This document shows positions 7,832 to 56,547 of a DNA stretch of 64,000 nucleotides, piece by piece; the first letter of the stretch is position 1; the number at the start of each line of letters is the position of its first letter. A model generated the notes under the pieces. The model had not been told where the DNA came from. It saw only the letters and a list, made by a program, of their open reading frames with translations, and ran no database searches. Source of the DNA: a virus (lineage: Duplodnaviria; Heunggongvirae; Uroviricota; Caudoviricetes); IMG/VR virus record IMGVR_UViG_3300043447_000408, positions 1-64,000 of that record. One strand, 5' to 3'. Both the position numbers and the translations under genes were made by a program.

Positions 7832-7997
7832 TTTTTATGAAATTAAAGGTGTGAATAACAGATGTAAAAAATATAACAAAAAAAATCAACAATCCAAAAT
7901 CCATATTGATTTTCGGGTAAAAAATGATGAACAATCCGGGTGATGCCATCACTAAGAGTAATTTGAGGAGTTTACTTGTATTTTTCATAATATTCAA
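7812..7997 (-). CDS. small membrane protein
   Basis: 61-aa hydrophobic ORF. Confidence 0.3.
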   Translation of the reverse strand: MNIMKNTSKLLKLLLVMASPGLFIIFYPKINMDFGLLIFFVIFFTSVIHTFNFIKNDLRIN

Positions 7998-8065
7998 TTA
8001 AAATACAAATATAAAATATATTCTTGAATAACAAAAAAAAACCTCACATTTGTGAGGTTAATTTT

Positions 8066-8308
8066 TTACATAAATAATTGATGTTTGGAGTGTAGTTTCA
8101 TAACGTGTTTACAATCAGGTAGATTGTCCTTTCCTTCACACCATCTAATTGCTAAATTGGTTAGTAAAGATGCATCATCACGAGACATCGAAACCTCACT
8201 TTCTTTATTAGATTGGTAGTTTTTCAACATTTCATCCCAAGTATAGTCTTCAACTAATTTTACTACATTTTTAAGTTGTGATTCGGTAATTGCTATTTTC
8301 TTTGACAT
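8066..8308 (-). CDS. hypothetical protein
   Basis: 80-aa ORF. Confidence 0.4.
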   Translation of the reverse strand: MSKKIAITESQLKNVVKLVEDYTWDEMLKNYQSNKESEVSMSRDDASLLTNLAIRWCEGKDNLPDCKHVMKLHSKHQLFM

Positions 8309-8337
8309 TTTATATGTATTTTTTTTATTATATTATT

Positions 8338-34426: not shown

Positions 34427-34854
34427 TAGTAGTAGTTTCCTGCATTATCTGTTTGAACGCTAGCTGTTACACTAACTACAAAATTATATCCTGTTGGATT
34501 TAAACAATACGCATTAAGAATCCATCCACTATAGTACGATGCACAGTTTGCTCTTATAACTACATATCCATCTGATGATGTGTAAACTCCGTGTGCACTT
34601 AGACCACCGTAAACATTTGATGTCCCGATTTGTATTGTTGAATTAGAACCAGCGTAAGCGTAAAAACTCCAAGCGGCTCTAATTGCTTGATTTGCACCAT
34701 ACGCATAACCAACAGCTTCAATAGTGCACATAATATTGTTCATATTGATGTTTGTTTTATAGTGAAAATAATTGTTTCCACCATAATACCTATCTCTAAA
34801 AAATCCCAACTGAACGCCAGGTGCTGGTCTCGTATTTGCTAAAAAATTAGCCAT
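34426..34854 (-). CDS. tail-fiber-associated Tyr/Gly-rich protein, paralog 1
   Basis: same conserved blocks; ATGA-type overlaps with neighbours. Confidence 0.6.
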   Translation of the reverse strand: MANFLANTRPAPGVQLGFFRDRYYGGNNYFHYKTNINMNNIMCTIEAVGYAYGANQAIRAAWSFYAYAGSNSTIQIGTSNVYGGLSAHGVYTSSDGYVVIRANCASYYSGWILNAYCLNPTGYNFVVSVTASVQTDNAGNYY

Positions 34855-37800: not shown

Positions 37801-38677
37801 CACTACTTGTAAAACTATTCAAACTACTTGTTGCAGTATGAATAGCATTTATGTTTGTAGTGTTTGAACTTGTATATGAATTTAAACTACTTGTTGCAGT
37901 ATGAATCGAATTAATATTGGTAGTGTTACTACTCGTGTAAGAATTCAATGCATTGATTGCGGTGTTGTTCGAACCTGTATATGTGTTTAACGCCGCAATT
38001 GAACCGGTTACCCCCTCAATAGAAGTTAATCTACCATCAGCACTTGAAGAGAATGAATTCAAACTTGCGGTTGCGGTGTGAATTGCATTTATATTTGTAG
38101 TGTTTGAACTTGTATAGGTGTTCAAACTTCCTGTTGATGTTTGTAACGTACCAATAATAGTATTGTTACTTCCTGTATATGTATTCAAACTCGCAGTTGA
38201 GGTATGAATAGCATTAATATTGGTTGTATTAGATGATGTATAGGTGTTTATCGAACCTGTAGATGTCTCCAATGCGACTAACCTATCCGAAGCACTTGAT
38301 GTGAATGTGTTTAAACTTGCTGTTGAGGTTTGTAATGTACCGATAACAGTATTATTACTTCCTGTATATGTGTTTAACGAGGATATTGAACCAGTAACTC
38401 CTTCAATTGAATTTAATCTACCGTGAGCACTTGATGTGAATGTGTTTAAACTTGCTGTTGAGGTTTCTATTGCAGTTAGTCTACCGTTGGTAGTTCCTGA
38501 GTAAGCGTAAAAACTTGAGGTTAGGGTATATCTCGGAGCAAAAGATGCGGTATCTGCACTTGTGGTGTTACCACTAATGGTCGCATTAATTATTCCAAGT
38601 ACCGTTAAGTTTCCCTGAATCTCCGCTGAAGAGGATACCGACAGGGAACCCGATATGTGTGCGTCAAATATATTCAT
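34847..38677 (-). CDS. tail fiber protein with C-terminal intramolecular chaperone (peptidase S74-like) domain
   Basis: 1276 aa; about 20-aa Ser/Thr/Asn repeats; GYTPYNATNPNGYI x3; C-terminal SSIRYKKDIETISYGLDKVLQLRGVTYVKK...coiled coil typical of S74 autoproteolytic chaperone domains. Confidence 0.85.
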   Translation of the reverse strand: MNIFDAHISGSLSVSSSAEIQGNLTVLGIINATISGNTTSADTASFAPRYTLTSSFYAYSGTTNGRLTAIETSTASLNTFTSSAHGRLNSIEGVTGSISSLNTYTGSNNTVIGTLQTSTASLNTFTSSASDRLVALETSTGSINTYTSSNTTNINAIHTSTASLNTYTGSNNTIIGTLQTSTGSLNTYTSSNTTNINAIHTATASLNSFSSSADGRLTSIEGVTGSIAALNTYTGSNNTAINALNSYTSSNTTNINSIHTATSSLNSYTSSNTTNINAIHTATSSLNSFTSSASGRLTALETASSSLNSYTSSNTTAITALNSFTTSFNTAFGLSGANVTVKGNLTVQGSTTQVDSTTVNIGDNIIQLNGTGATNAGIVVRDATSPTLTSGSFLWDSTNDKWVAGPLGSEDEVVLKTASQALTNKTISGGSNTLSNIGNSSLTNSSISIAGTSTSLGGSITAATILTSTGVWSGSAQLPSGVVSGSAQVIANLPSGTVSGSSQVLAGTTIHSGAFFNGISVVSGSGQISFNGITDKPTLVSGSSQVLNGSGVWSGSAQLPSGVVSGSSQITFLSISSIPSGLVSGSSQVLAGTTIHSGSFFNGISVVSGSAQISFNGITDKPALVSGSSQITFLSISSIPSGLVSGSSQITLTSTQVTNGLGYTPYNATNPNGYISSYTETDTLASVTARGASSSTQITLSGKLRMSSDLGVDAGNALYFGREESFGGSNTGGDDYGYITFDNNSTTYSDAGGTERSVLRIGTSNDGVGNVEDNLAIESTANIYLNPAGVIYRGNKATRYTIWDSGNLTNLNQLTNGPGYITGINSSAVTTALGYTPYNATNPNGYITGINSSAVTTALGYTPYNATNPNGYITGISFANVSSKPTTLTGYGITDALPLAGGTLTGDLRFNNSGYGRIAFTDNYHGMILRGNPNNAAGDITAGDVTSLVQHSGDFRFYRTNGTINEIYFQVNATAPYWRGNTIYHAGNIPTWNQNTTGTASNITSYTINQSVGTSNAPTFAGLTSNGTLTVNGTGIFTSGASDWQISLRSTDTWAGMEFDDTNSSPDYIWYHGGAQTFAIGGGGSNVSGKKLHVHGGMTIGSGLVSTSTTSNGLSVEGSITISTNNATGGGIILADDGDIVDLNDAYCSMRFSAGVRIFSANRGGSAVITLGSNGNLTTSGTITENSSIRYKKDIETISYGLDKVLQLRGVTYVKKENNVKEMGVIAEEIAEILPDVVLYDSEGKVDSVSYGRITAVLIEAIKDLKKEINELKNNG
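37690..38500 (-). repeat. intragenic tandem repeats encoding SLNTYTGSNNT-type units
   Basis: near-identical nucleotide blocks recur, e.g. cacttgatgtgaatgtgtttaaacttgctgttgaggttt twice near 38290 and 38420. Confidence 0.6.
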
Positions 38678-38731: not shown

Positions 38732-39505
38732 TTATTTAGGTAAATAATCGGGAAAATTGGATTTTACAAACTGAAGTAGTTTTTTGGAGTATTCTTCGTT
38801 GTGTTTTGGTGTTGCGTGTTTACCATCAATTGAGAATTCACGGAAATCTCCGTAGTCACCATCGAACCGATATTTGTCAGAATATTCGTTATCCATCAGG
38901 AAAGAACCGTTCCATATATATGGGATGCTCCTATTCTCCAAATAATTGGTGATTAGAAGATGGTTTTTGTACCAATTGATTAAATCGTTCTCGTCGTGGG
39001 TAATCCTTGCAATTGATTTGTACTCCTCTTTCCCCTCACTATCTTCCTTAAAATAACCCCAAGGAGTCATATGAAATGGTTCCAACTCTCCGTTGTATCG
39101 ATAGTATTCTTTACGGGATGGGTAGGTGTACATTAAGTTAACCAAATTAGGTCTTATCTTTTGGGTTAAGGTGATTACACATCTAGCAATGTAATCATTA
39201 CTACGTCCACCAAACCCCAAATTTAAATCTACCCCGTTCTGTATCTGTCTTGAGAAATAGTGAGGCCAAGTTTGGTTATCACTAACCCCTACACCTTCGG
39301 TGTGGGAACAACCAACTGACATTATTCTAAACCCATCCTTATATAATGAATCTCCCCTGAACCCCATTTCATTGTATGTGTAGGTATTCGTTTCGGAAAT
39401 GTCGGAACCTGATGTGTTAAATGTTTTATTCCTACGTTCATCTAATCTCCAAGAATGGTTACCCACCTCAAACCCCGAACTTGTCCAAAACTTCATTGAT
39501 TTCAT
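38732..39505 (-). CDS. SGNH hydrolase-like protein (GCS variant)
   Basis: block I SVGCSHTEGVGV, block V DGKHATPKHNEE. Confidence 0.55.
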   Translation of the reverse strand: MKSMKFWTSSGFEVGNHSWRLDERRNKTFNTSGSDISETNTYTYNEMGFRGDSLYKDGFRIMSVGCSHTEGVGVSDNQTWPHYFSRQIQNGVDLNLGFGGRSNDYIARCVITLTQKIRPNLVNLMYTYPSRKEYYRYNGELEPFHMTPWGYFKEDSEGKEEYKSIARITHDENDLINWYKNHLLITNYLENRSIPYIWNGSFLMDNEYSDKYRFDGDYGDFREFSIDGKHATPKHNEEYSKKLLQFVKSNFPDYLPK

Positions 39506-40200
39506 ATTAAATTCTTGTTTCTAATGAAATGACTAACTTTATTTTTATCCGCAATGTGACAAACCCCATTCATTGATAACTCATCAAACGATGGGTTATG
39601 TTTATATAGGTAATTTATATCATCAAAGTATAAATTTAAATATTGTTGATTTAAAGTTATTGGTGGTATCCCGTGGTAACGTTTGTTAAAAAAATCGTAA
39701 TTTGACTCAATAACATCTAAAACTTCGGAATATGCTTTATTCACATTTCTAAAGTTGCGAGACGCAATTATTGAGGTGTTATTCAATTCCATATAATCTA
39801 ACGAGGTATTTGAATATAGTTTATGTAGTTCGGTAAAATGTTCAATTTGTGAACTCGATAAAGGATGTTTGTAACATAAATTTAGTTTATCCTTTTTAAT
39901 TATATCTAATAATTTTTTAATATCCTCAACTACTAAATCATTATCCAAATGTATAAAAGGAAACTGAATTTCGGATAGTACTTTTAATTTAGGATATGAC
40001 CATATTGTTGGTTTTCGGTATCTATCCGATAGGGACAATTCAACCCAATCATATACTAAGTCTAAATTTTTAAAATAATCAATATCGGAATATATTATAG
40101 GAACTTCACCCTGTATATTCAAACTTTGAATTGAGTACTTTAAGTAAATTTCAGTAATCTCTTTGAGTCTGGTTGGTAGATATGTGAATACTATTCTCAT
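39502..40200 (-). CDS. hypothetical protein
   Basis: 232-aa ORF, ends NLI. Confidence 0.5.
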   Translation of the reverse strand: MRIVFTYLPTRLKEITEIYLKYSIQSLNIQGEVPIIYSDIDYFKNLDLVYDWVELSLSDRYRKPTIWSYPKLKVLSEIQFPFIHLDNDLVVEDIKKLLDIIKKDKLNLCYKHPLSSSQIEHFTELHKLYSNTSLDYMELNNTSIIASRNFRNVNKAYSEVLDVIESNYDFFNKRYHGIPPITLNQQYLNLYFDDINYLYKHNPSFDELSMNGVCHIADKNKVSHFIRNKNLI

Positions 40201-41444
40201 TATAGTAATGGTCGTTTTGGTATGGGTTCGTTAGATATTGTACCATTAACCATCATATCTAACATTGAATTTTCTTTATGTAATCTATCAATAAAAATGT
40301 CGTGACATTCTTTAATCCAATCCTTACATAGTTGATAATTGTTGTCAAAATCACTAATGAATGTTCTTACAAAATCCGCAAATAGTTTAGCATTTCCTTG
40401 ATATTGTTTGGACTCATCATAAAAAGGATGTTTTCTAATCCCAACCAAATCCATAATACAATCGTATGGATATGAATGAGTGGAAATGAAAGGAACGTTT
40501 GCTAAAATTAATCCTAATGACTTTTCACTTAGGTATTGACTGTGGTAATCAGCAGAATTATGAGCCCAAGATTCGTCACATATTTGAATTTTAGACATTG
40601 GTAAAATCCTCAAGAAAAAGTCAAGACCTACAGTTATGTTTGTTAATATCCTTAAGTTCTGAAAATCAATTTCAGAATCGTAATCATTTAAGTAAGCTCC
40701 TTCAATTTTTCTATATTTTGGTTGGACTGAGTTATGTTCAATAACATTCGTTTGTGAAACAAATATATCTTCTATTTGTGTTAACTCTTCAGCTATTTTA
40801 ACTCTGAGGGGTTTATGTGCTCTAACCGAATAGCCCATTTTATATTTTGGAACTATAACATCACTAACATTTTTATAATCATAAAACCACCTAATACTAA
40901 TCATTTCATTCCATTGAAAAATAATGTTAGTGAATGGATTGTATAAGTTTGGGTGTTTACTTAATACTATTTTATTAGTAAAAATATTATCAGTTAATAT
41001 ATAATGATTTGATAATCTAAGAATTTGATTCTCAATTTCTTCAATTTGTATTGTTCCGTCTGTCTTTACTTTTGCGTTATCATTCTTAATGAATATTTTT
41101 TCAGTTCTAAATAAAGATACCACCCAATTCTTTTTGTCTTCAATGAGGTCCGCCATTCTTTCGATTATGGCAAAAGAATCCGAACCTTTATGTTCGGTGT
41201 TTTCAAAATTTGTATCTTGACCTCTTTGTCTAAGTGCTCCAAAGAAATCAATTATGTGAATCCCCTCATCATCATTTATCTCAGGATTAAATGACACTTC
41301 AAAGTTCTTTCCTCCGTACTCAAATGTGATATCCCTAATCGCACCGTTAGTGTTATCCACTTCAACCATCTCTTTGTTCTTAACATTATGAAAGAACTTT
41401 TGAAATAACATATCGGTATAATAATGATGAACGAATATTTTCAT
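40200..41444 (-). CDS. hypothetical protein (414 aa)
   Basis: long ORF, no motif recognised. Confidence 0.5.
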   Translation of the reverse strand: MKIFVHHYYTDMLFQKFFHNVKNKEMVEVDNTNGAIRDITFEYGGKNFEVSFNPEINDDEGIHIIDFFGALRQRGQDTNFENTEHKGSDSFAIIERMADLIEDKKNWVVSLFRTEKIFIKNDNAKVKTDGTIQIEEIENQILRLSNHYILTDNIFTNKIVLSKHPNLYNPFTNIIFQWNEMISIRWFYDYKNVSDVIVPKYKMGYSVRAHKPLRVKIAEELTQIEDIFVSQTNVIEHNSVQPKYRKIEGAYLNDYDSEIDFQNLRILTNITVGLDFFLRILPMSKIQICDESWAHNSADYHSQYLSEKSLGLILANVPFISTHSYPYDCIMDLVGIRKHPFYDESKQYQGNAKLFADFVRTFISDFDNNYQLCKDWIKECHDIFIDRLHKENSMLDMMVNGTISNEPIPKRPLL

Positions 41445-41447
41445 AGG

Positions 41448-41945
41448 TTAAATTAATTTCTTGATTGTTTTATCTCTATCACCTTTTCTTAATCTCTCCT
41501 CACTGTTGAAATCAAAAATATCTTCATAATACGTAATTGGGACATTAAGTTTGGTGGATAAGTCACTTAACTCCTTATTCCATTTTATAATGTCGTTGTG
41601 GCACAGTTCAAAAATATCTGTAGGTATCTCTTCATAAACATAAGGTTTGTTTGAGTCATAATTTTTAATCTTTGAGAAGTATGTTTGGTAAGCGTGTGAT
41701 TCTGTACACTCTTTAACGTTTCTTCTCGTTAATAATATCACCTCATCAAAGTTTTTTGATAGTTGTATATTATCGTTGTGATGACATATTATTGTTTTAA
41801 CCACAACATTCTTTTCACTATTATATTCAACTCTACCAGTACCATCAAACGGTTCAAACAAAGGTTTTAAATTTTTCTCTTTTGCTAATTTGTGTAACAA
41901 TGAAGTAGAACCTGTTCTTGGTAGGGAGATTATTAATACACTCAT
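41448..41945 (-). CDS. NodH/Stf0-like sulfotransferase
   Basis: 5'-PSB-like loop IISLPRTGSTSLL at N-terminus; LLTRRN..ES 3'-PB-like; short (165 aa). Confidence 0.5.
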   Translation of the reverse strand: MSVLIISLPRTGSTSLLHKLAKEKNLKPLFEPFDGTGRVEYNSEKNVVVKTIICHHNDNIQLSKNFDEVILLTRRNVKECTESHAYQTYFSKIKNYDSNKPYVYEEIPTDIFELCHNDIIKWNKELSDLSTKLNVPITYYEDIFDFNSEERLRKGDRDKTIKKLI

Positions 41946-42508
41946 AACAATGTTTTATTACTTTTAACTCTCGGATAATCAAAATCAGTTTCGGTCATCC
42001 ACACATTTAACGCATATCTTATTCCCTTAGTTACCGGTAAAACTCCGTGATATGTTTCCGAACCATTGAATGAAATACTATCACCCAATTTCAAATCACA
42101 TAATGTTAAACCGTCCAATTTCTCAAAGTTGTATGGTGGATTCTCATCTTGGGTTAACACAAATTGACCACCTTCAAAATCGTCAGAAAGAACGATAACA
42201 GTCGTCAACTCACTTGACTTGTCTTTATGTAGATTAAGGTACCTACCATCATAGTACGATGTTAAACTTATATTGAAATTTTTTAAATTAAATGTTGAAT
42301 AATCAAACCATAATTTAAACTCTCCATTTTTGTAATTGGTTGTTAATAAATTAATAATTCTTTCTTTAAAATTGGAATCGTACATTCTTCTACAATCCCA
42401 TACTTCGGTTGGTTTATATGAAAAGGGTTCACCGAACTCAAGACAAAAATCAATTATATCTTTAGCGGTTTCTCTATCACAAAAATTATTGTTTATGTTA
42501 TAATTCAT
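41942..42508 (-). CDS. 2OG-Fe(II) oxygenase (prolyl-4-hydroxylase-like)
   Basis: HKD (HxD), distal YHGV His, RYALNVW Arg. Confidence 0.7.
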   Translation of the reverse strand: MNYNINNNFCDRETAKDIIDFCLEFGEPFSYKPTEVWDCRRMYDSNFKERIINLLTTNYKNGEFKLWFDYSTFNLKNFNISLTSYYDGRYLNLHKDKSSELTTVIVLSDDFEGGQFVLTQDENPPYNFEKLDGLTLCDLKLGDSISFNGSETYHGVLPVTKGIRYALNVWMTETDFDYPRVKSNKTLL

Positions 42509-43326
42509 AGTAGATATGAATTTTTCTTTTTATTATGAATTAGTAAATTACCTTCATTTATGAATTTATACAATTCCTCAGCAATTAATTTATATCCATT
42601 GTTACTTGGATGTTTACCTGCGGTTGTGTCCACCCATCGATTATTATCCTCCCAAACATCTTTTCTATTTGTGTCGATTAACAAATTAGCCATTGTTTTA
42701 TCTCTATAACCCCAATATCTTTCACCCTCAATCAAATGAGTTTTATCAACCAGAACATCAATATTTTTGTTAATCATAGTATCAAACGCATCACAAAAAA
42801 CATATCTAATCCCCAACTCTTTAAACATAAATTGTAAGTGTAGAATGTAGTTTTGGTTAACTATGTCATAGTACGTGTCATTAAACAAATTACTAATGTA
42901 GTAATCTCTAAAATTTTTTTCTGCTCTATTATAGTTTACATTATCCCCACTAACACCGTCGAAAATATATTTGAAAAGATGTTGTTTACTCTTATATCGT
43001 TGACCCCAAATATGAAAACTATTCTCGTTCGGAAAAAATGGTAATTGGTCTCTTAATGAGGAGGACCACATAATAACAACAAAATCATCTTGAGTGATGA
43101 TTTCATTTTTTAATTGATAACAAACTGTATTGAATATTGAGTTGTTTGAAAAAGCCCCAACTCCGTTATTTTTAACTTCACATTCAAGTAGTTCTGATAA
43201 GTGTTTTGGCCAACAATATTTTTGTCTTATGTTAGTTCTTTCCTCAGGAATTTCTGTTGTTAATTCTTCCTCAACATTACCCCCAACACCTTCTGTCCAA
43301 CTATCTCCATATGTGAATAACTTCAT
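42505..43326 (-). CDS. SGNH/GDSL hydrolase
   Basis: block I LFTYGDSWTEGVGG, block V AGKHPSNNGYKLIAE. Confidence 0.6.
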   Translation of the reverse strand: MKLFTYGDSWTEGVGGNVEEELTTEIPEERTNIRQKYCWPKHLSELLECEVKNNGVGAFSNNSIFNTVCYQLKNEIITQDDFVVIMWSSSLRDQLPFFPNENSFHIWGQRYKSKQHLFKYIFDGVSGDNVNYNRAEKNFRDYYISNLFNDTYYDIVNQNYILHLQFMFKELGIRYVFCDAFDTMINKNIDVLVDKTHLIEGERYWGYRDKTMANLLIDTNRKDVWEDNNRWVDTTAGKHPSNNGYKLIAEELYKFINEGNLLIHNKKKNSYLL

Positions 43327-43337
43327 AAAACATTATC

Positions 43338-43481
43338 TTATTCCCCCAAGTGTTTAACCTTAATAGCAGTTACAACCGCCTCAAACGCAGTTGCTACTTT
43401 TGTTTTTAGTTCACTTGAAATGGGTGCAACAATTGCTTTAATTGTTTGTGCGGGTCTTTCTATTCTTTCTTTTTGTGCCAT
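43338..43481 (-). CDS. small hypothetical protein (47 aa), not in ORF track
   Basis: MAQKERIERPAQTIKAIVAPISSELKTKVATAFEAVVTAIKVKHLGE fills the gap between flanking genes. Confidence 0.3.
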   Translation of the reverse strand: MAQKERIERPAQTIKAIVAPISSELKTKVATAFEAVVTAIKVKHLGE

Positions 43482-43493
43482 AATAAATTAGTT

Positions 43494-44987
43494 TTAGATT
43501 TTAGGTAATGGTACGTTACTACAACTTGGGCAGTACCAAGAATTACACCAATGTCCACAATAGTTCCAAGGACACCAACAAGTGTTGTGCATCACACTGA
43601 AATCACCGTCACCAATGTCGACTAAGAATAAATCCGAAGATTCAAAGTCCAAACTGTAAATGGTTTTTTGTGCGTGTTCCATTTCCAAACCAGTAATTTC
43701 AACAGTTGTTAATAGATTGGTATTCGCGTCTGTGATTACCAATTTGTCACCAACATACATTTTATTGACTTTTTCAAATCTGGTTGAAGTTGAGTCTTTC
43801 TCCTCAATATAATAAGTTGCTGACGGTGCGTCGGTCCAAGTTCTACCATCAGATAATGTTATTCTGATGTAAATCGTATCAACAGCGCCAGACACCATCG
43901 CATTTAATGTGGTTCCGGTTTGAATTAATGTTGAGTTGTCTTGTGCAACTGTACTATCCCACCCAAATGTTTCAATCTTACTTTGCTCAAATTTAGCTGC
44001 GTGGTTATCATTTAAGTCTACGTAATCAATTGAACGAACATAATCACCCAATTCTATGGTATCAACATCTAATAATGTTCCGTCATATTTTAATATAACA
44101 CTATCATCATCAGTGTGATAATCATTCTTTGCGTAGTTACCTAATTCCTTAGTAATATATTTGTATCTACTTTTCTGATTTAACTTATTAGTTCCCGTAA
44201 CAAATTCATCATCTGAGAATGTTAATGGTATAATTGTTGATTGTGTATATCCACCCATATGGATAACATCCAATTCAGGTCCATATATAATGTCAATACT
44301 TCTTATTATTGAATATCTACCTTGGACTAAGTTGTTTTCGGAAAAAATGAATTCTTGAGCTAAGTGATTTGGTTCTACTAAATTTGCCTTCATAGATTCT
44401 AAATCCTCATTATTTGATATTCTATATAGTGCAGGATAATCCATTGGATTATAAGAAGGGTTTCTTGGTTTTATTAAAATATTTGGGGTCGATGTGGTTG
44501 TATAATCCACTGAATCTATTGTATCAAAATTTATTTCACTAGTCTCAAAATATGTTTTTGGGATAAACTCTGACTGACCCATTAAATTAAAAAATTCAAA
44601 CTTATCCGCACAGTAGGTTTCATCGACTAAAGCGGTGGTATCAAAGGATTGTCTCAGTATAAACTTGTGAACATCGTCTTCAATGTATGGTACCGTAACA
44701 GAACCCACTGGCACAATAAATTCAGTGAATGACATATTATTTTCTTGACACTTTTCTTCTAAAATTTTCTTAAATCTATATTGTTCGGTTAAGGGTTTAT
44801 ATGCATCCCCTTCGGTCCATATTAAATAGAATTCAGTAATGTTGTTGTCAACCAACATCGTAAATAACGAGGTATAATCAAGGAAATCAGCACCCTCATT
44901 ATAAATTGTGGTGTTTGTGTTTATTTCCAAAAACTTCACCGAGTCTCCTGTTTGTAGTAAGTCACTACCAATTATAGTTGCTTTCAT
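43494..44987 (-). CDS. hypothetical protein with C-terminal Cys/Trp-rich tail
   Basis: 497 aa ending HNTCWCPWNYCGHWCNSWYCPSCSNVPLPKI. Confidence 0.55.
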   Translation of the reverse strand: MKATIIGSDLLQTGDSVKFLEINTNTTIYNEGADFLDYTSLFTMLVDNNITEFYLIWTEGDAYKPLTEQYRFKKILEEKCQENNMSFTEFIVPVGSVTVPYIEDDVHKFILRQSFDTTALVDETYCADKFEFFNLMGQSEFIPKTYFETSEINFDTIDSVDYTTTSTPNILIKPRNPSYNPMDYPALYRISNNEDLESMKANLVEPNHLAQEFIFSENNLVQGRYSIIRSIDIIYGPELDVIHMGGYTQSTIIPLTFSDDEFVTGTNKLNQKSRYKYITKELGNYAKNDYHTDDDSVILKYDGTLLDVDTIELGDYVRSIDYVDLNDNHAAKFEQSKIETFGWDSTVAQDNSTLIQTGTTLNAMVSGAVDTIYIRITLSDGRTWTDAPSATYYIEEKDSTSTRFEKVNKMYVGDKLVITDANTNLLTTVEITGLEMEHAQKTIYSLDFESSDLFLVDIGDGDFSVMHNTCWCPWNYCGHWCNSWYCPSCSNVPLPKI

Positions 44988-45078: not shown

Positions 45079-45366
45079 TTAAATTAAAGTACTATTTTTC
45101 TTACTCATAATGGGTGTTATATATTCTGAATCAACCTCTTCCCAATAACCTTTGGTACAAGGATTAAAATTCTTCGAAAAAACTTTTTTGTTTAATGGGC
45201 ATCCACAATCACCACAATAAGCAGACCATTTTACACCTTTCAAAACTTCTTTCCTATATTCACAACCCAAACAAACATTTAATCTTTTTTCTGCCAACTC
45301 CTCTTCTATCGGGGTTGGGTTGAATGATGTTTTCCAAGCTTCAAAAATTTCTTTATAGTCTATCAT
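45079..45366 (-). CDS. small Cys-rich (zinc-ribbon-like) protein
   Basis: CLGCEY...YCGDCGCP...NPC. Confidence 0.45.
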   Translation of the reverse strand: MIDYKEIFEAWKTSFNPTPIEEELAEKRLNVCLGCEYRKEVLKGVKWSAYCGDCGCPLNKKVFSKNFNPCTKGYWEEVDSEYITPIMSKKNSTLI

Positions 45367-46154
45367 ATTAATGTCTTGGTTAATTTTGGTAGGTCGTAAT
45401 AATCATAAATACTGTTGTATTTTTTTATAAAATCATCATCTAAATTCACAACACATTTCATATGTTTACTTGAATTAACCGAATGAAGCTCAAATGGTTT
45501 TTCTAAAATATTTGATACCCATTCCTCTAACTTATCTAATTCATCAAAATCAAACCAAATTATTGTTTGGTCATTATTTGTCCAATTTGATACGGGGGTT
45601 AATAGAATGTCAATCATATTAACTGCATATCCCTTGGTGTTAGATTTAAAATATTCTTCTTCTGATTTTTTAAATTTTGATGTTACTGAGATATCTATTT
45701 TTTCATCAATCAATTTCAAATCCATTAGAAATTCACAAATTTTATTCCATCTTTGTTTTTTAGTTGCAACATCTTCTTTTGTAAAAAAGAATAATTCATC
45801 CAATGATAGTTTGGAGAACTTTTTATAAATCTTACTAAATCCCATCCTTTTTAAATCAAATAAGACGTGTTTATATAATGAATAAAATCTTTCGTGTCTT
45901 TGTCTTTTAACAGCAATAATCGGGTAGTTTCTACCAAATTTAGTCTGTAAATCAATTAAAGATTCGTGTCCGTGATAGATATAATTCATTAAGTCTTTTG
46001 TATCTACCGATTTAAAATCAATGTCTGAATTTGCTAATTCCCACTCACCATTATGTGTCTGTACTTTAACATCATTAACTAAACAAGAATAATGAAATGC
46101 GGTAGACGCACATCTCGGTAAACTCAAATAAAAAAACTTATTTTCAACTAACAT
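45363..46154 (-). CDS. sulfotransferase-like protein
   Basis: N-terminal FYLSLPRCASTAF resembles the PSB loop of the 41448-41945 protein. Confidence 0.4.
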   Translation of the reverse strand: MLVENKFFYLSLPRCASTAFHYSCLVNDVKVQTHNGEWELANSDIDFKSVDTKDLMNYIYHGHESLIDLQTKFGRNYPIIAVKRQRHERFYSLYKHVLFDLKRMGFSKIYKKFSKLSLDELFFFTKEDVATKKQRWNKICEFLMDLKLIDEKIDISVTSKFKKSEEEYFKSNTKGYAVNMIDILLTPVSNWTNNDQTIIWFDFDELDKLEEWVSNILEKPFELHSVNSSKHMKCVVNLDDDFIKKYNSIYDYYDLPKLTKTLI

Positions 46155-46723
46155 TATATTAAGGATTTTTTAATTATTTTGGAGGGCCATACATTTATGG
46201 AGTATCTAACTCCGCTTGTTATTTCTTTTACTGAATGTACGATGTTTGAATCAAAAATGAATACACTACCTTCTTTTTTAGGTACCGAATACTCAGTTTC
46301 GTTTATCATATACTTAACATCTCCATCCTCGTATTGGTCGTTTAATTGAATTATATAAGTTATTGTTGCACCATTTACAATTTCGTGACTATCGGGATGC
46401 CAATCTAAAAAATCACCTTCCCCATATCTGTTAAATGAATAATTGTGTATTCGATTATACGTGATTCCATTATATGGGTTTAATTCATTAGATAAAGTAA
46501 TGATTTTATCGGTTAACTCTTTTAGTATTGGTAAGTCTAATAATCCGTTAGTAAAATATGTTCCCATTCTTTTATTACCACTATACTCAGTATTTTCTGT
46601 TAATACTTTCCCGTTAACCACTAATGATGATTTCATTTGTACTAAATTAGTTGATTCACCTAACTTTATTAAAGACTTGCACTCATCAGGAGTTAAAAAA
46701 TTTTCAATGTACCTCGTAAACAT
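46154..46723 (-). CDS. 2OG-Fe(II) oxygenase (P4H-like)
   Basis: WHPDSHE, HSVKE, RYSINVW. Confidence 0.7.
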   Translation of the reverse strand: MFTRYIENFLTPDECKSLIKLGESTNLVQMKSSLVVNGKVLTENTEYSGNKRMGTYFTNGLLDLPILKELTDKIITLSNELNPYNGITYNRIHNYSFNRYGEGDFLDWHPDSHEIVNGATITYIIQLNDQYEDGDVKYMINETEYSVPKKEGSVFIFDSNIVHSVKEITSGVRYSINVWPSKIIKKSLI

Positions 46724-47377
46724 TTATATCAGAGATTTTTCTTTTTTTATATAATCGAACCCAACATTACCGGCAACCACAATTCTATCTATAGTTGAGT
46801 TAGGTGCATTATTTGGGCTATGTGGCATATCCGCCTCCATAATAATTAAATCATCTTCTTCGGGTCTAATCCAATATTCTTTTTTATTGTTTCCTTTAAA
46901 ATATAAAACTCCGTCTTCACCATTCATAACATCAGGCATTTGAATATAATAAACGTACGTATAATGAGGAATAAATGATTTAATTTCTTTGTTTATGTCT
47001 GTGTGTACGTGATATTTGTCTACCCCTTTCAATTCCTCGTGTTTGAATTGTATTTGAACTGGGTCAGTCGAGCGGACAACGTTAACCCAAGCATCTGTAT
47101 TAATTTTATTATATAAAATATTTTTTTCTTTGTATAAATCTTTACAACGGTCAATTCCAATTTGAATGATTTCATCCATTTTTGTTTTAATATCAATTTC
47201 ACCAGTAAAATTGATATTCTGATTCCATTCTTTTACAAAACCATACCCATCAGTTTTAACATCTGGTTGGGATTCTATAATAGAATTGGCTTCTTTTAAT
47301 AAATCCGTTTTATCAGATAAACGATTTAATTTACCTCTCCAAATATATGTCTCTTCGTCAAAGTATAATTTCTCCAT
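46724..47377 (-). CDS. putative cupin/2OG-Fe(II) oxygenase-like protein
   Basis: HVHTD and distal MPHSP, RIVVAG; weaker match. Confidence 0.4.
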   Translation of the reverse strand: MEKLYFDEETYIWRGKLNRLSDKTDLLKEANSIIESQPDVKTDGYGFVKEWNQNINFTGEIDIKTKMDEIIQIGIDRCKDLYKEKNILYNKINTDAWVNVVRSTDPVQIQFKHEELKGVDKYHVHTDINKEIKSFIPHYTYVYYIQMPDVMNGEDGVLYFKGNNKKEYWIRPEEDDLIIMEADMPHSPNNAPNSTIDRIVVAGNVGFDYIKKEKSLI

Positions 47378-47378
47378 A

Positions 47379-48623
47379 CTATATCAATTCTTTTTTAAGT
47401 ACTTTTTTGTTCTTTCTGAAAATGGTTAGATAATTGTTTACAAAAAAAGTAAGTTCGTTTGGTGTAATATCTTCCAATTCAAATGATGATAGTAATTCCA
47501 CATCACTTCTAACTGTGATTGAGTTATTTTTGTCTAATATCTTTTTTAGTTTTGAAGGTATCGGCATTGATGTACAGTCTTTCCAAAACTGCGTGTCATC
47601 TCTCTCACACAAATAATGATATCTTATGAAATTTAAATTCTGTTCGTTTATTTGATAACACCATTTATTATATCTCTCAACATATTGTTCATCGAAGTTT
47701 AAATCAATTAACTTCTTTAACTGCATTATAGTCGACATCAATGATGTCGCTTCTAAAGGTTCAATAAACCCATAAGATAGTCCTATCGATATACTATTCC
47801 CAATCCAACTTCTTTTATGTGTACCAGGATTAAAGTTAAAAACTTTTTGTAAAGTTACTTCGTGACCTAAACGATTCTCAATCTCTTTCTTTGCATCTTC
47901 TACGGTTATATATTTGTCATTGAAAACATAACCGCAACCCCATCTATGTTGTAATGGGATTTTAAACATCCAACCACAATCCATCGACACCATCTCGGTA
48001 TATGTCTTATCATTTAATTGATATTTGTTTTCTTGTGGTAAAAAGAACGCTATTGCCTTATTCATCATCAAGTAATCGGTATACCCAATCCACTCTTCTT
48101 TATGTACACCATCAATAACGATTTTAGCAAATCCACTACAATCAAATACAAAATCTAAATCAATGGTTGTACCATCTTTCATTTTTAATTCTGAAATGAT
48201 ACTATTTTCATTTTTTATCTCACTCACCTCACCGTCAACCCAATTAACTCCTCTACTAATTGCAATTTCTTTAAAGTATTGTGCAACTAATCTTGCATCA
48301 AAATGATAAGCATACGATTTATTAAATTCGCTTGGTCCGTCACCAAAGAAAAGATGCTTTGATAATTCATTATTACCTGTCCAATTATATAAATGTAATC
48401 CACCTTTTACTGTTGATTTAGTTTTCTCAAAGAATTCATTCTGATTAATATCTAATAACACGAGCATCTTACCGAAGTTGGATGTTCCTCCTTCACCAGC
48501 ACCCAATATTCCAATTTTAGAACTCTCTACTAATGTAACACTAACATCCTTCCAAAATTTATTAACCACCAATGAGGTTAACCATCCCGCAGTACCACCG
48601 CCAATTATTACAACTTTTTTCAT
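47379..48623 (-). CDS. flavin-dependent halogenase (tryptophan halogenase family)
   Basis: N-terminal VVIIGGGTAGWLTS; GWMFKIPL resembling the WxWxIP motif (second W is F); AGEGG near N-terminus. Confidence 0.65.
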   Translation of the reverse strand: MKKVVIIGGGTAGWLTSLVVNKFWKDVSVTLVESSKIGILGAGEGGTSNFGKMLVLLDINQNEFFEKTKSTVKGGLHLYNWTGNNELSKHLFFGDGPSEFNKSYAYHFDARLVAQYFKEIAISRGVNWVDGEVSEIKNENSIISELKMKDGTTIDLDFVFDCSGFAKIVIDGVHKEEWIGYTDYLMMNKAIAFFLPQENKYQLNDKTYTEMVSMDCGWMFKIPLQHRWGCGYVFNDKYITVEDAKKEIENRLGHEVTLQKVFNFNPGTHKRSWIGNSISIGLSYGFIEPLEATSLMSTIMQLKKLIDLNFDEQYVERYNKWCYQINEQNLNFIRYHYLCERDDTQFWKDCTSMPIPSKLKKILDKNNSITVRSDVELLSSFELEDITPNELTFFVNNYLTIFRKNKKVLKKELI

Positions 48624-49168
48624 ATTAAATTTTGTTTATTTGGGGTAGTCTTAATTATCGATACCCAATTTACTAATGAATATCTTGTACCCGATTCAAC
48701 CGGTGTGACTCTATGTCTTAAACCCGATTCGAAAACATATAATGTACCTGCTCTTTTTTGTGAGGGTATGTTGTCACCTTTCGAATCTTTTATTTCTAAA
48801 AATCCACCTTCATAATCATCGTTTAAAAGAATGACAGTTGACACGATTCTTTCTTTAAAGGTGGTTGAGTCCTTATCGGTATGCCAACCATAATACTCCC
48901 CGACTTTGTATTCAGTAAATTGAAAAGAGCCGAGACCTGTGACCTCAGCACCATTCAATTTAAAAGATTCTCTTAATATTTCTTTTAATCTAATATTAAC
49001 ATCACCCAAATCATTAATCCAAGATACTGAAGATTTTCTTTCGTTCGGATTTCCGTTCGCAACTCCTGCAGTTTCTAATGTTAATTCTTTGTGACACTTG
49101 TTTAACACATAATGACATTCATCATTTGATAAAAAGTTTTCAAATATGTAGAATTCATTATTTGTCAT
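48620..49168 (-). CDS. 2OG-Fe(II) oxygenase (P4H-like)
   Basis: WHTDKD, HRVTPV, RYSLVNW. Confidence 0.7.
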   Translation of the reverse strand: MTNNEFYIFENFLSNDECHYVLNKCHKELTLETAGVANGNPNERKSSVSWINDLGDVNIRLKEILRESFKLNGAEVTGLGSFQFTEYKVGEYYGWHTDKDSTTFKERIVSTVILLNDDYEGGFLEIKDSKGDNIPSQKRAGTLYVFESGLRHRVTPVESGTRYSLVNWVSIIKTTPNKQNLI

Positions 49169-49379
49169 TTTCCTTTCTTAATCCAAATTTTATCCACTTA
49201 TACCATATCCTTTCGTGAATATAATATTGAATTGGTTTATATACAAGTTCAGCAATACCAAATGCAGCTCCGACTTTAATATCACCACTAACCCACCACA
49301 TAATTACAAATCCGATTAATGTACTTATAACTCTGTAGGATATAGTTTTGGCTATATGTCGTTTACGTTCTACTACCAT
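49158..49379 (-). CDS. small two-TM membrane protein
   Basis: 73 aa, two hydrophobic helices. Confidence 0.45.
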   Translation of the reverse strand: MVVERKRHIAKTISYRVISTLIGFVIMWWVSGDIKVGAAFGIAELVYKPIQYYIHERIWYKWIKFGLRKENDK

Positions 49380-49725
49380 CGTTGTTTATTTCTCCATTAC
49401 GGATTTTAGTACCACTTATTGCCGCAACATCTGCAGGTGGTTCGTGATAGATTACTTCATACCCAACTCCTCTACCATAATTCACCGATTCAATGTCAGG
49501 AATAATTGATAATAATAACTTATCGAAATTGTCATTAAAGAAAGGTTCTTTAATTAATTCTTCAAACACTTCTCGTGCCGTTTTGGGATTGTTTTCATCA
49601 ACTTCAACATCTCTAATTGCCACCCATACATTTTTACCTTGGTCTAATTGTTGTCTAATTAACCATTCGTGTCCTTTGTGCCAATTCTGCCATCTTCCGA
49701 TGTACAGTGCATACTTTTTACTCAT
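49363..49725 (-). CDS. HxGH nucleotidyltransferase (NMNAT/cytidylyltransferase-like)
   Basis: YIGRWQNWHKGHEWLI (HxGH) and C-terminal ISGTKIRN (ISxTxIR) motifs. Confidence 0.6.
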   Translation of the reverse strand: MSKKYALYIGRWQNWHKGHEWLIRQQLDQGKNVWVAIRDVEVDENNPKTAREVFEELIKEPFFNDNFDKLLLSIIPDIESVNYGRGVGYEVIYHEPPADVAAISGTKIRNGEINNDGSRT

Positions 49726-50156
49726 AAAAATAATTTATTGATTAATTCTGTGTACGATACCATTAATTCGGTATCGGTTGTGTTAATTGATATATAATTT
49801 TCGGTTGGGGGTTCGTAGTCCTTAACGTGAAAGTTTTCCCTACCTCTAATGTCAGTTGTATGAACGTATATTTCAATTGCACCGGATTTACCTTTAAGGT
49901 CATCCCTTAAATCTTTATATGGTGACACTAACGACGCCACCACATTGTATCCTTTTTCATTTAGAAAATATGCAATATCCATAGCCTTTTGAATATTTGC
50001 ACGTCTTCCATTTTCAGAATAATCTTTATTTTTAAAGATGTCTCTTAAATCGTCACCATCAATGTGAATGGTGTTTCCAACATTTAAATACCCAACTAAC
50101 TTTTTAGCTAAGGTTGTTTTACCTGCACCAGGTTGTCCTGTAAACCAATAAATCAT
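49722..50156 (-). CDS. cysC: adenylylsulfate (APS) kinase
   Basis: FTGQPGAGKTTLA, IDGDDLR, RRANIQKAMDIAYFL, SLVSPYKDLRDD match the CysC consensus throughout. Confidence 0.8.
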   Translation of the reverse strand: MIYWFTGQPGAGKTTLAKKLVGYLNVGNTIHIDGDDLRDIFKNKDYSENGRRANIQKAMDIAYFLNEKGYNVVASLVSPYKDLRDDLKGKSGAIEIYVHTTDIRGRENFHVKDYEPPTENYISINTTDTELMVSYTELINKLFL

Positions 50157-54546: not shown

Positions 54547-55283
54547 ATACTTTTAAAGTCAGAGAAATCTCCACTTTTTTCAACTAATTGTTTGAAGTTA
54601 ATATATGTATTTTTTTTGTCTTTTTCAACCAATGACTCCCATTTTTCCGCAATCATATCCATACTTTCAGTATAATACTCAGGTAACCTTGTCTTTACCC
54701 AATCCAAATGGGTTGTTATTGTTGGATGTGAATCAAATTCATCAATAAAGTTATATTGTGGTTTGCCTTCATTAAAATCCATTAAATTATCTGCGGTTAA
54801 TATTTTTTGTAGTTCGTTACTACAATTAACCATTCTTTTTGGTATGTTTTCTAATGTCCCCTTTTGTGATGATATGTCAAATGCTGACATAAACTTATAC
54901 TCACAACCAATACTATCTAATAAGTACTTTACACTCAATATGTTGTACCAACTCATAAAATATCCGTGTTCATCGGTCCAATATTTGGTGACAAAATCGT
55001 GACCATATAAAGTTTGATTGTAAAGATTGCCAGCGTTTATCCAATTGGAATTTTTATCAATCATATCATTTCTGAAATATTGACTAAACATCACCAATAC
55101 TGTATCATCCTTAGTAAACTTATTTACTGAATTACATTCAAATAGTCTCGATGATATAAAATAGTTACCAGCACCAGCATTAGCCCAATTTTGATGGGTG
55201 TCAAAATTTAGTGCAACAAAATCTGCCCAAGTGGGCCAAATATAACTCGTAAAACTACAACCAAATGTAAAAAGTCTACCCAT
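54543..55283 (-). CDS. SGNH hydrolase-like protein (GCS variant)
   Basis: block I LFTFGCSFTSY, block V DSHPTITTH. Confidence 0.55.
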   Translation of the reverse strand: MGRLFTFGCSFTSYIWPTWADFVALNFDTHQNWANAGAGNYFISSRLFECNSVNKFTKDDTVLVMFSQYFRNDMIDKNSNWINAGNLYNQTLYGHDFVTKYWTDEHGYFMSWYNILSVKYLLDSIGCEYKFMSAFDISSQKGTLENIPKRMVNCSNELQKILTADNLMDFNEGKPQYNFIDEFDSHPTITTHLDWVKTRLPEYYTESMDMIAEKWESLVEKDKKNTYINFKQLVEKSGDFSDFKSI

Positions 55284-56547
55284 TTAATTCATTCCACATT
55301 TCTAATAAAACTTCCCTTATTGTTGATGATTGGTCACTCTCACTATACTTCTCTTTATAGATTCGATTATAGTTTTCTTTATTGTGAACTAATACCTCTT
55401 GTATCTCTTCTCTAATTTTAATTAACTCTTCTTTCGATTTCTGCTTCAATTTTAATAGTTCATCAACTATCATTTTACTTCTCTTATCTCTATCAGGTTC
55501 ACTATCATAACTTTCGTCCCACCATCTATCAAAAGTTTTATAACCAATTGATTTTAAATACTTTAATGAACCTTCATTACCATATAATAAGAACGGATGA
55601 CCAACCATAATCGGTTTCCATATCTTTTCCGAAAAGAATAGTGTACCAGTGTCTACCAATGTTTCAGTAACAACTGAAACAAAAGTTCTTTCAAAATCTT
55701 CAGTGGTTATGTTACACGCGAGATTGAATCGTAGTTCTGGCATACTATCAATCATAAATGGTGTGTTGTTGAAGAAAAAGTGATGAACTTCAGGAGGTAC
55801 AGGATAAGGTAACGGATGTACGATTTTATCTAAACTTATTAACCCGTCATATATTAATCCCTTTTCATATAAATCAATCATAAAACGTAATCTATGGTGT
55901 CTGGGTTGACGATTGTAGGATAGGAATAGGTATTTGTCATCACTTGGTTTAAAGTCCACCATTGGTCCTTTATATTGATTCCACGGTTCAAAATAGTGAA
56001 TACCTCTTGCTTGGTATCCAAGACCTTTGTTTTTAACAATTTGTTCAGATAATAGATTACCACAGACGTAGTAAATTGAATCGATTGGGAAATTCATCTG
56101 TAATCTCCACTTTTCAATCATTTCAAAATCATAGTTGTTTTGGATACCAGAATAACCCTCATAAATGAAGAACATCAATATTTTACACTTACCATTTCTA
56201 ATATCTTCAATATACTCAGGAGATATACACTTCAACCCAATCTCGTTGTTAAGTGTGAAAAAATCGTGACTATACACGTTGATTATGTATATGTGTTTGG
56301 AATCACCAATCTCCTCTTTTGGGGTGTATTTTATCAGACTACTATGGGTTGGTGTGATGGAATTTCTCATATGTCCGTCTTGAAACATCTCACCTTGTTC
56401 GGTGTACACATTCCATTGACCCCACATATGTGGTATTGCCAATCTCTTTAACTCCTTAATGTACCAGGTTTTGGACGAACCGTTTGGTCTATAATAGTTT
56501 AGAATACTGTCCCAATCCTCTAAACTGCAAATAATTTTTTCTTTCAC
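55276..56547 (-). CDS. putative fucosyltransferase-like glycosyltransferase, paralog of 58758-60041
   Basis: LSYNRQPRHHR, FSEKIWKPIMVGHPFLLYG (GT10-like EKxW), WDESYDSEPDRDKR shared with paralog. Confidence 0.45.
   Translation of the reverse strand: MKEKIICSLEDWDSILNYYRPNGSSKTWYIKELKRLAIPHMWGQWNVYTEQGEMFQDGHMRNSITPTHSSLIKYTPKEEIGDSKHIYIINVYSHDFFTLNNEIGLKCISPEYIEDIRNGKCKILMFFIYEGYSGIQNNYDFEMIEKWRLQMNFPIDSIYYVCGNLLSEQIVKNKGLGYQARGIHYFEPWNQYKGPMVDFKPSDDKYLFLSYNRQPRHHRLRFMIDLYEKGLIYDGLISLDKIVHPLPYPVPPEVHHFFFNNTPFMIDSMPELRFNLACNITTEDFERTFVSVVTETLVDTGTLFFSEKIWKPIMVGHPFLLYGNEGSLKYLKSIGYKTFDRWWDESYDSEPDRDKRSKMIVDELLKLKQKSKEELIKIREEIQEVLVHNKENYNRIYKEKYSESDQSSTIREVLLEMWNELNG

Follow-up and report, generated by a model that had tools for sequence, protein, structure and literature searches.

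A compact flavin-dependent halogenase in a conserved phage gene cassette, and its candidate aromatic substrates

What would a phage halogenate? The question is raised by a 414-amino-acid (aa) protein encoded at positions 47379–48623 of a 64,000-nucleotide stretch of viral DNA (positions 1 to 64,000 of the IMG/VR record IMGVR_UViG_3300043447_000408, hereafter the window). An initial annotation had assigned this protein to the tryptophan-halogenase family, and had suggested that it modifies a sugar- or peptide-borne substrate rather than free tryptophan, possibly the Trp/Cys-rich tail of a protein encoded nearby. The analysis described here leads me to propose, at a little short of even confidence and on sequence-derived grounds, that it is an active, compact halogenase that tailors a bulky, probably protein-borne aromatic group.

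The 414-aa protein almost certainly belongs to the tryptophan-halogenase family, judging from its sequence. It matches the Pfam family Trp_halogenase (PF04820) with an E-value of 1.4e-88 and a score of 298 bits (cut-off 21), as well as PHROG 2928, 'tryptophan halogenase' (E 9e-92), and in a HMMER search against the PDB it matches 30 solved halogenases, with PrnA at the top (E 3e-55). The two motifs on which the initial annotation had relied are both present, GGGTAGW at residues 8–14 and GWMFKIPL at residues 217–224. The former contains the dinucleotide-binding GxGxxG motif, in the form G8-G-G10-T-A-G13-W, and its glycines are kept in 150 of 151 relatives. In the alignment to PrnA, K73 pairs with the catalytic lysine (PrnA K79), and E291, the second Glu of an FIEPLE segment, pairs with the catalytic glutamate (PrnA E346). 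Neither residue varies among 118 close relatives (63–97% identity) or in any halogenase linked to the gene cassette described below, down to 40% identity; the K73 equivalent is found in 149/151 sequences of the family alignment. The initial annotation had named as its alternative a generic flavin enzyme without the active-site lysine, and this is not what is encoded here; the protein is likely to be catalytically competent, as predicted from its residues. The segment around E291, F286-I-E-P-L-E291-A-T-S, corresponds to FLEPLESTG in PrnA. The replacements of Ser by Ala and of Gly by Ser in this FxEPLESTG segment are not a special feature of the protein, since most of the nearest 150 cluster representatives have them too.

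The predicted fold agrees with this assignment. An AlphaFold2 (AF2) model, built with 31 relatives in the alignment, has a predicted local distance difference test (pLDDT) score of 81 and a predicted template modelling (pTM) score of 0.84, and its 50 best PDB matches in Foldseek are all flavin halogenases. The template modelling (TM) scores of these matches are 0.77–0.85 on the query length, with PyrH and PrnA at 0.79–0.85, and 0.62–0.72 on the target length, the latter being lower because the target structures are larger.

The WxWxIP motif has its counterpart in W218-M-F220-K-I222-P223, with Phe at the second Trp, a substitution that the initial annotation had noticed. It is rare (7 of 151 relatives) and marks the subclade of the query only; the divergent cassette halogenases, and most cassette halogenases altogether, carry the canonical motif. 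Variants of WxWxIP are tolerated among known halogenases (PMC8407142).

The substitution nonetheless bears on a different reading, in which the protein does not halogenate: it may be a flavin monooxygenase acting on protein-bound tryptophan, or a degenerate, inactive copy of a halogenase. Such monooxygenases, namely LodB, GoxB and QhpG, build cysteine tryptophylquinone in Cys-rich peptides. LodB (E 3.4e-8), QhpG and GoxB are among the weak NCBIfam matches of the 414-aa protein, a partner protein in the cassette carries a CWC motif, and the Trp replaced by Phe belongs to a motif thought to keep the substrate off the flavin (PMC8407142). However, the NCBIfam matches reach 33 bits against a cut-off of 400 for LodB, 17 against 240 for QhpG and 14 against 400 for GoxB, and reflect the generic flavin adenine dinucleotide (FAD) module only, in contrast to the score for Trp_halogenase given above. 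The halogenase-specific Lys and Glu are invariant, the canonical WxWxIP is retained in most cassette halogenases, and the strong conservation argues against a decaying copy. I therefore regard a non-halogenating protein as very unlikely.

While the family is clear, the protein is ∼100–135 aa shorter than the canonical enzymes PrnA, PyrH and RebH. Its HMMER alignment to PrnA consists of two blocks, pairing residues 2–89 with PrnA 6–95 and residues 101–348 with PrnA 155–408, so that ∼59 PrnA residues lie opposite 11 residues of the query, and 130 C-terminal PrnA residues opposite 66. Relatives were gathered by an exhaustive search of 1.84 billion representatives of 50%-identity clusters, which returned 4,689 sequences. 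Among the best 150 of these, on which the length comparison was made, only ∼14 are shorter than 440 aa, and the remainder are ∼500 aa long. In the region of positions 85–103 the query has 18 residues, compared with a median of 56 in the long forms, and after position 348 it has 67, compared with a median of 101. In the family alignment, the short forms lack a ∼50-residue segment after an H-x-F motif, as well as the last helices. The H-x-F motif itself (H90 and F92) is retained in the short forms, as is the C-terminal motif F...(S/N)(W/Y) (F393 and Y398); in the long forms, the His is found in 118/142 sequences and the Phe in 139/142.

H90 and F92 are probably the equivalents of H101 and F103 in PrnA, on the basis of their position; fragment searches gave no confirmation. 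In PrnA, H101 and F103 stack on the indole and Y443 and Y444 hold the amino-acid carboxylate, and together with E450, F454 and W455 these residues form the substrate module (PMC5659210). No counterpart of Y443/Y444 can be assigned in the query: the HMMER alignments to solved enzymes end at query residues 348–366, leaving 48–66 residues of the query, compared with ∼117–130 in PrnA, and the region of PrnA containing Y443, Y444, E450, F454 and W455 could not be aligned. In searches with the last 50 residues and with the H-x-F region as fragments, the HMMER alignments to solved halogenases also fell short. The sequence length thus suggests that the active site is more open than in the canonical enzymes. 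Since the shortfall of ∼100 aa lies in substrate-side regions, free tryptophan is probably not the substrate, in agreement with the initial annotation.

In order to identify candidate substrates, the genes surrounding the halogenase have to be considered (Table 1). I compared 39 metagenomic loci that have a halogenase of 399–420 aa and at least 5.3 kb of downstream sequence, some of them being redundant copies of one contig; contigs bearing halogenase relatives reach 287–333 kb. The gene order is fixed, and consists of a 2-oxoglutarate (2OG) oxygenase, the halogenase, a 217-aa 2OG-oxygenase-like protein and sometimes a further 2OG oxygenase, followed by a ∼250-aa protein, a ∼95-aa Cys-rich protein, a ∼495-aa protein and an open reading frame (ORF) of ∼47 aa. 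Genes for a GDSL-like protein, a further 2OG oxygenase and a 165-aa protein often come next. In 39/39 of these loci the 497-aa protein of the window has a homologue, and nearly all of them have the whole core; the gene order is rearranged in two, labeled L050 and L052. The link between the halogenase and the 497-aa protein, which the initial annotation had proposed from their proximity, is therefore real. The cassette is found in none of the loci with halogenases of 373–388 aa or of at least 467 aa, and in a neighbour-joining tree the cassette halogenases group into a single clade with 56 leaves, only one of which is not short.

A second, shorter group of phage halogenases, of 373–388 aa, was also observed (IMG/VR loci L057–L061, L066, L067, L070 and L072). 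These keep the Lys, the Glu and WxWxIP, lie outside the cassette clade and lack the cassette, and look like an independent shortening.

Within the cassette, the gene directly upstream of the halogenase encodes a 2OG oxygenase in most related loci; in the window, the end of this oxygenase gene and the start of the halogenase share 4 nt. The 217-aa protein shows an HxD...H pattern when read by eye, and has homologues in all cassettes, with or without the halogenase. Three of the flanking 2OG-Fe(II) oxygenases named in the initial annotation are confirmed by profile matches, and this 217-aa protein is a weaker case. The sulfotransferases that it had placed nearby are less secure. For the 165-aa protein the support is faint, a homologue matching Sulfotransfer_1 at E 0.022 and Sulfotransfer_3 at E 0.038, and the label was dropped for the 263-aa protein, for which nothing was found in the Pfam, PHROG, NCBIfam or PDB searches. 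The 47-aa ORF (MAQKERIERPAQTIKAIVAPISSELKTKVATAFEAVVTAIKVKHLGE) follows the 497-aa gene in essentially all related loci, at 38–97% identity; it contains no Trp, Tyr or Phe, and has no family match. In L052, a gene for a SET-domain methyltransferase, of the protein lysine methyltransferase type, follows the halogenase (6881–7249 (+), E 2.9e-13). A SET-domain gene with a weak match is also found in or next to the cassette of locus L002 (20422–20805 (+)).

Is the halogenase an obligate member of the cassette? In a reverse sample of 35 loci, found through the 497-aa protein and having at least 4.8 kb of upstream sequence, the halogenase is present in 30 and absent from five, and in the latter, extra 2OG oxygenases are found in its slot. 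The tailoring role of the halogenase is therefore optional: the enzyme belongs to an oxidative array that varies between cassettes and lies upstream of a fixed core. In several loci (L043, L056, L064, L065 and L077) the halogenase is 40–46% identical to the query, and the 497-aa protein 73–78%. Such diverged halogenases beside well-kept 497-aa proteins indicate that distinct halogenase lineages take the same slot, which implies that a halogenase is selected for in this place of the cassette.

The 497-aa protein is an orphan. I detected 524 homologues, all ∼495 aa in length and none with a Pfam domain, and the protein itself has no PHROG or NCBIfam match. The family is absent from deposited phage records, cyanophages included, and from 185,579 bacterial and archaeal species genomes; for lack of a match in cultured phages or species genomes, it permits no inference of the host. 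Its gene lies 2.4 kb downstream of the halogenase, on the same strand, and its C-terminus (...HNTCWCPWNYCGHWCNSWYCPSCSNVPLPKI) is indeed rich in Trp and Cys, as had been pointed out. Homologues share a conserved N-terminal domain, and an invariant H467-N468 precedes the tail. After this HN comes a variable residue, then the consensus C-W-C-P-W-x-x-C-G-x-x-C-x-x-x-x-C-x-x-C and a basic end. Six cysteines are conserved, five of them being invariant and C481 at least 90% conserved, and W471, P473 and W474 are also conserved at 90% or more; Trp, Tyr, Pro and Lys are all found in the tail.

The AF2 model of this protein is poor (pLDDT 47, pTM 0.29), and the only profile signal is a weak one, a PKD-like stretch at ∼331–396 (E 0.26). 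One homologue, in L050, is informative: encoded at 7632–9269 (+), it is 545 aa long and 27% identical over residues 1–455 (E 7e-48), and after the shared '...HN', the sequence 'KWSDIRLKENI...GVMAQEL...YMVDYSKL' replaces the Cys/Trp tail. This C-terminus matches Peptidase_S74 (PF13884), an intramolecular chaperone domain known from the fibres and spikes of phages, at a borderline level (E 6.5e-4, 20.4 bits against a cut-off of 22), and no PF13884 domain was found in the 497-aa protein of the window. The C-terminal modules of the family thus appear exchangeable at the HN junction, and the sequence suggests a trimeric fibre- or spike-like protein.

Two other identities of the 497-aa protein were considered. 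An intein, Hint or bacterial intein-like (BIL) domain, for which 'VMHN' and 'DDSVILKYDGT...GDYVRS' had been the cues, was rejected: there was no Pfam or PDB profile match even at E 10; in addition, N468 can be followed by T, S, A, G, D or P, and there is neither a block-B TxxH nor an invariant His between 296 and 467. An ATP-grasp N-terminal domain, read by eye from LEINTNTT, LIKPR and QEFIF, found no support in Pfam and PDB profiles.

The initial annotation had proposed that the tryptophans of this Cys/Trp tail are what the halogenase modifies, which is a subset of the protein-substrate explanation. The tail is conserved in the manner described above, its gene is always in the same cassette as the short halogenase, and SrpI brominates the C-terminal Trp of a ribosomal peptide (PMC10286304); the Pro, Tyr and Lys of the tail would also suit the hydroxylase-, sulfotransferase- and SET-type neighbours. 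However, the tail Trp content is equal with and without a halogenase, the five cassettes that lack the enzyme retaining these tryptophans. L052 combines a 399-aa halogenase with a tail that has Tyr and Phe and no Trp, and L050 keeps the halogenase, 2OG oxygenases, and 242-aa and 171-aa proteins without any Cys/Trp tail. The tail is therefore not an obligate substrate. As halogenase lineage and tail sequence are moreover uncoupled, I consider it improbable that the tail tryptophans are the target.

The broader explanation that I favour, a protein-borne aromatic group as substrate, does not require the tail. Reduced flavin, presumably from a host reductase, would react with O2 and halide to give hypohalous acid, which K73 and E291 would direct onto an electron-rich aromatic ring. 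The trimmed ∼400–420-aa lineage has retained the flavin module, the catalytic pair and the pocket aromatics H90, F92, F393 and Y398, and its active site, presumably more open, would take something bulky in place of free tryptophan. The cassette is conserved in large uncultured phages, its changing set of prolyl-hydroxylase-like 2OG oxygenases, which may or may not include the halogenase, standing upstream of the fixed core of 217-, 263-, 95-, 497- and 47-aa proteins. The likeliest substrate would then be the side chain of a Trp or Tyr in one of the proteins that the cassette encodes; the 497-aa protein leads the candidates, as it is the invariant partner in the cassette. The neighbouring genes lean in the same direction, namely the PF13640 prolyl-hydroxylase-like oxygenases and the SET-domain methyltransferase of L052. 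Precedents are the flavin halogenases MibH, SrpI and ChlH, which act on peptides or proteins, and the prediction of peptides or co-encoded tail-collar-type proteins as targets of clusters of dioxygenases, halogenases and sulfotransferases (Iyer et al., 2010; PMC2938197). Flavin halogenases act on electron-rich aromatics or enolates, and for this reason a sugar-borne substrate, the other possibility raised in the initial annotation, finds no support.

Several observations weigh against a protein substrate. The points just given for the tail apply here as well, including the five of 35 cassettes without a halogenase. The fibre-like label of the 497-aa protein derives from one borderline S74 match, in a homologue that is 27% identical, and from the weak PKD-like match. 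The retained pocket aromatics are equally compatible with a small indole or phenol, and VirX1, which alone among viral homologues has been characterised, takes small molecules as substrates in vitro (PMC8407142).

These last two points belong to a rival explanation, in which the enzyme would be a small-molecule halogenase like VirX1, BrvH or Xcc4156, acting on free indole, phenol or another host or phage metabolite. The cassette would then make a halogenated, hydroxylated secondary metabolite, with the 497-aa protein an unrelated or an enzymatic partner. VirX1 is a clear homologue of the query (E 1e-50 and 3e-65 in separate searches) and halogenates diverse small aromatics (PMC8407142), and the top sequence matches of the C-terminal part are Xcc4156 and BrvH, which take indole rather than tryptophan. 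Secondary-metabolite synthesis has been proposed for cyanophage oxygenase/halogenase arrays (Iyer et al., 2010; PMC2938197), and in L050 the halogenase persists where the Cys/Trp tail is replaced. However, the searches made found no nonribosomal peptide synthetase, polyketide synthase, ATP-grasp or prenyltransferase that could supply a scaffold in the cassette. The adjoining oxygenases are prolyl-hydroxylase-like, a SET domain is found nearby, and the co-occurrence with an orphan, structural-looking protein is strict. On balance, a small-molecule substrate seems to me an appreciable possibility, and still an unlikely one.

Within the protein-substrate explanation, a bolder proposal is that the phage halogenates its own protein, the 497-aa protein bearing hydroxyproline, chloro-, bromo- or iodo-Trp or -Tyr, and possibly sulfotyrosine. 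In most variants, the target would include the six-cysteine C-terminal knot rich in Trp, Tyr and Pro, and the modifying enzymes would be the prolyl-hydroxylase-like oxygenases, the short halogenase, and the adenosine 5′-phosphosulfate (APS) kinase and sulfotransferase-like genes. Such a set of modifications recalls the conotoxins of cone snails. To my knowledge, there is no published case of a virion protein being halogenated after translation, and literature searches turned up none; I rate this proposal as quite unlikely. A short precursor with a target Trp, of the kind found for peptides that are made on the ribosome and modified after translation (RiPPs), was not seen either, the only short conserved ORF being the aromatic-free 47-aa one.

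The window comes from a large tailed phage, as indicated by a tail fibre of 1,276 aa with an S74 domain, an RNA ligase / tail-fibre attachment protein, a thymidylate synthase and a C5 DNA methylase. No near-identical DNA was found in 50,697 deposited phage records. From ∼56.5 kb down to 34.8 kb, the genes run in one direction and are tightly packed, with overlaps of 4 nt and 1 nt. This block contains four 2OG-Fe(II) oxygenase-type genes, an APS kinase, a carbamoyltransferase and DUF6734 proteins, and glycosyltransferases and sugar epimerases are found farther out in the window; the name 'glycan island', given in the initial annotation, is a fair label for this wider region. A 120-aa nucleotidyltransferase-like protein with an HxGH motif is conserved at 68–99% identity in nearly all related loci (57% in one), often above the conservation of its neighbours. 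Together with the APS kinase it could supply activated sulfate, and it could be a minimal sulfate adenylyltransferase that makes 3′-phosphoadenosine 5′-phosphosulfate (PAPS) with that kinase.

Other observations concern the surroundings of the cassette. The tail fibre has long near-repeat runs before its S74 domain, for example 'SLNTYTGSNNT...', 'GSAQLPSGVVSGS...' and 'ALGYTPYNATNPNGYITGINSSAVTT', the last occurring twice. The thymidylate synthase matches its Pfam profile over the full length, implying ∼100 extra residues within the domain. In an NCBI assembly (L158; GCA_013565755.1, JACCDS012093971.1, 324 kb), the whole island is near-identical, and its genes, from carbamoyltransferase to tail fibre, follow one another in the same order; judging by how its contigs are numbered, this assembly seems to be highly fragmented and may be eukaryotic or from a holobiont. 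The bin from which one IMG/VR locus, L032, was taken carries the label of a giant-virus metagenome-assembled genome.

Table 1. Position and supporting evidence of the genes discussed, in window coordinates
Positions	Strand	Gene product	Evidence and remarks
4446–5390	(-)	SPFH/Band-7 protein	
15434–16387	(-)	C5 cytosine DNA methylase	
17920–19806	(-)	628-aa protein with PcfJ-like domain	
20803–21897	(-)	Thymidylate synthase, 364 aa	Matches whole 266-position Pfam profile
34847–38677	(-)	1276-aa tail fibre, C-terminal Peptidase_S74 chaperone	E 1.3e-12; 3′ end of co-directional block
38732–39505	(-)	257-aa protein	Conserved in related loci
40200–41444	(-)	414-aa island protein	No Pfam family match; conserved in related loci
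41448–41945	(-)	165-aa P-loop-like protein, may be a sulfotransferase	Sulfotransfer_3 E 0.11
41942–42508	(-)	188-aa 2OG-Fe(II) oxygenase	E 1.1e-8
42505–43326	(-)	273-aa SGNH/GDSL-like protein (DUF6071), frequent neighbour	E 6.4e-6, just below cut-off
43338–43481	(-)	47-aa lysine-rich ORF	Conserved cassette member; not listed in the initial annotation
43494–44987	(-)	497-aa orphan protein, cassette core	Homologue alignment, synteny
45079–45366	(-)	95-aa Cys-rich core protein, CxxC...CxxCxC	phrog_13558; synteny
45363–46154	(-)	263-aa core cassette protein	Conserved synteny
46154–46723	(-)	189-aa 2OG-Fe(II) oxygenase	E 2.6e-12; position differs among cassettes
46724–47377	(-)	217-aa probable 2OG oxygenase, core gene directly after halogenase	PF13640 E 2.9e-4, below cut-off
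47379–48623	(-)	Short flavin-dependent halogenase, 414 aa	Pfam, PHROG, PDB alignment, clade conservation, AF2 model, Foldseek
48620–49168	(-)	2OG-Fe(II) oxygenase, prolyl-4-hydroxylase-like (PF13640)	E 1.5e-16; phrog_61
49363–49725	(-)	120-aa HxGH nucleotidyltransferase-like protein	Nicotinamide mononucleotide adenylyltransferase (NMNAT)-like, E 1.8e-6, below cut-off
49722–50156	(-)	APS kinase	APS_kinase E 1e-15
55276–56547	(-)	423-aa island protein	No Pfam family match

Flavin halogenases are sought-after biocatalysts, and VirX1 is the only viral example to have been characterised. The analysis defines a compact, ∼410-aa subfamily that is abundant in aquatic metagenomes, and its defined genetic context offers concrete candidate substrates, so that the role of phage halogenases, long a matter of question, can now be tested directly. 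For the labelling of peptides and proteins, a small halogenase whose site is open could be of use. If a phage structural protein did prove to be the substrate, virions would be modified in a way that is new, and the modification might play a part in receptor binding or help to resist host proteases.

How does this enzyme compare to known systems? VirX1, from cyanophage Syn10 (PDB 6QGM), prefers iodide and has an active site that is open (PMC8407142). Like the query, it is a viral enzyme of the tryptophan-halogenase family that carries the catalytic Lys and Glu, and no native substrate has been assigned to it; however, it is 531 aa long, compared with 414 aa here, and the query is only ∼28% identical to the cyanophage halogenases. 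PrnA, PyrH and RebH are the best matches in sequence and fold, sharing GxGxxG, the K79/E346 equivalents and the FxEPLE segment. They differ from the query in their greater length, the query lacking ∼50 aa after H-x-F, having a truncated C-terminus, and carrying WxFxIP in place of WxWxIP.

The closest protein from a cultured phage is gp079 of the Pelagibacter phage HTVC008M, at 36.6% identity, and in this phage the start of the halogenase gene is likewise overlapped by that of a 2OG-Fe(II) oxygenase. In contrast to the protein described here, gp079 is 464 aa long, lies between structural and terminase genes, and has no cassette of 217-, 263-, 95-, 497- and 47-aa proteins. The best BFVD structural match of the query, M1HLT6, is also 464 aa long and, by this equal length, is probably gp079. 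A literature search on pelagiphage or tail-fibre-linked halogenases found nothing.

Among flavin halogenases that act on peptides and proteins, MibH, SrpI (PMC10858898, PMC10286304) and ChlH (bioRxiv 10.1101/2025.01.12.632611) halogenate Trp within ribosomal peptides, SrpI at a C-terminal Trp. MibH is a detectable homologue and fold match of the query, but a more distant one than the free-Trp enzymes (E 2.6e-37, compared with 3e-55 for PrnA). All three are full-length enzymes (∼540 aa for MibH) and come with recognisable RiPP precursors and leaders, none of which were seen here.

Finally, cyanophage arrays have been described with up to ten dioxygenases and two tryptophan halogenases, and for clusters of dioxygenases and sulfotransferases the predicted targets were peptides, or else tail-collar or collagen-like proteins encoded alongside (Iyer et al., 2010; PMC2938197). 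The array of Syn9 resembles the present cassette in that several unrelated 2OG oxygenases accompany the halogenases, sometimes with sulfotransferases. In contrast, the short clade, the fixed core around the 497-aa protein and the optional halogenase were not described for these arrays. A compact clade, with a fixed cassette around an orphan protein and an optional, swappable halogenase, appears not to have been described previously, the literature search being negative. Phage halogenases beside oxygenases are already known, and the compact clade and its cassette add to that picture.

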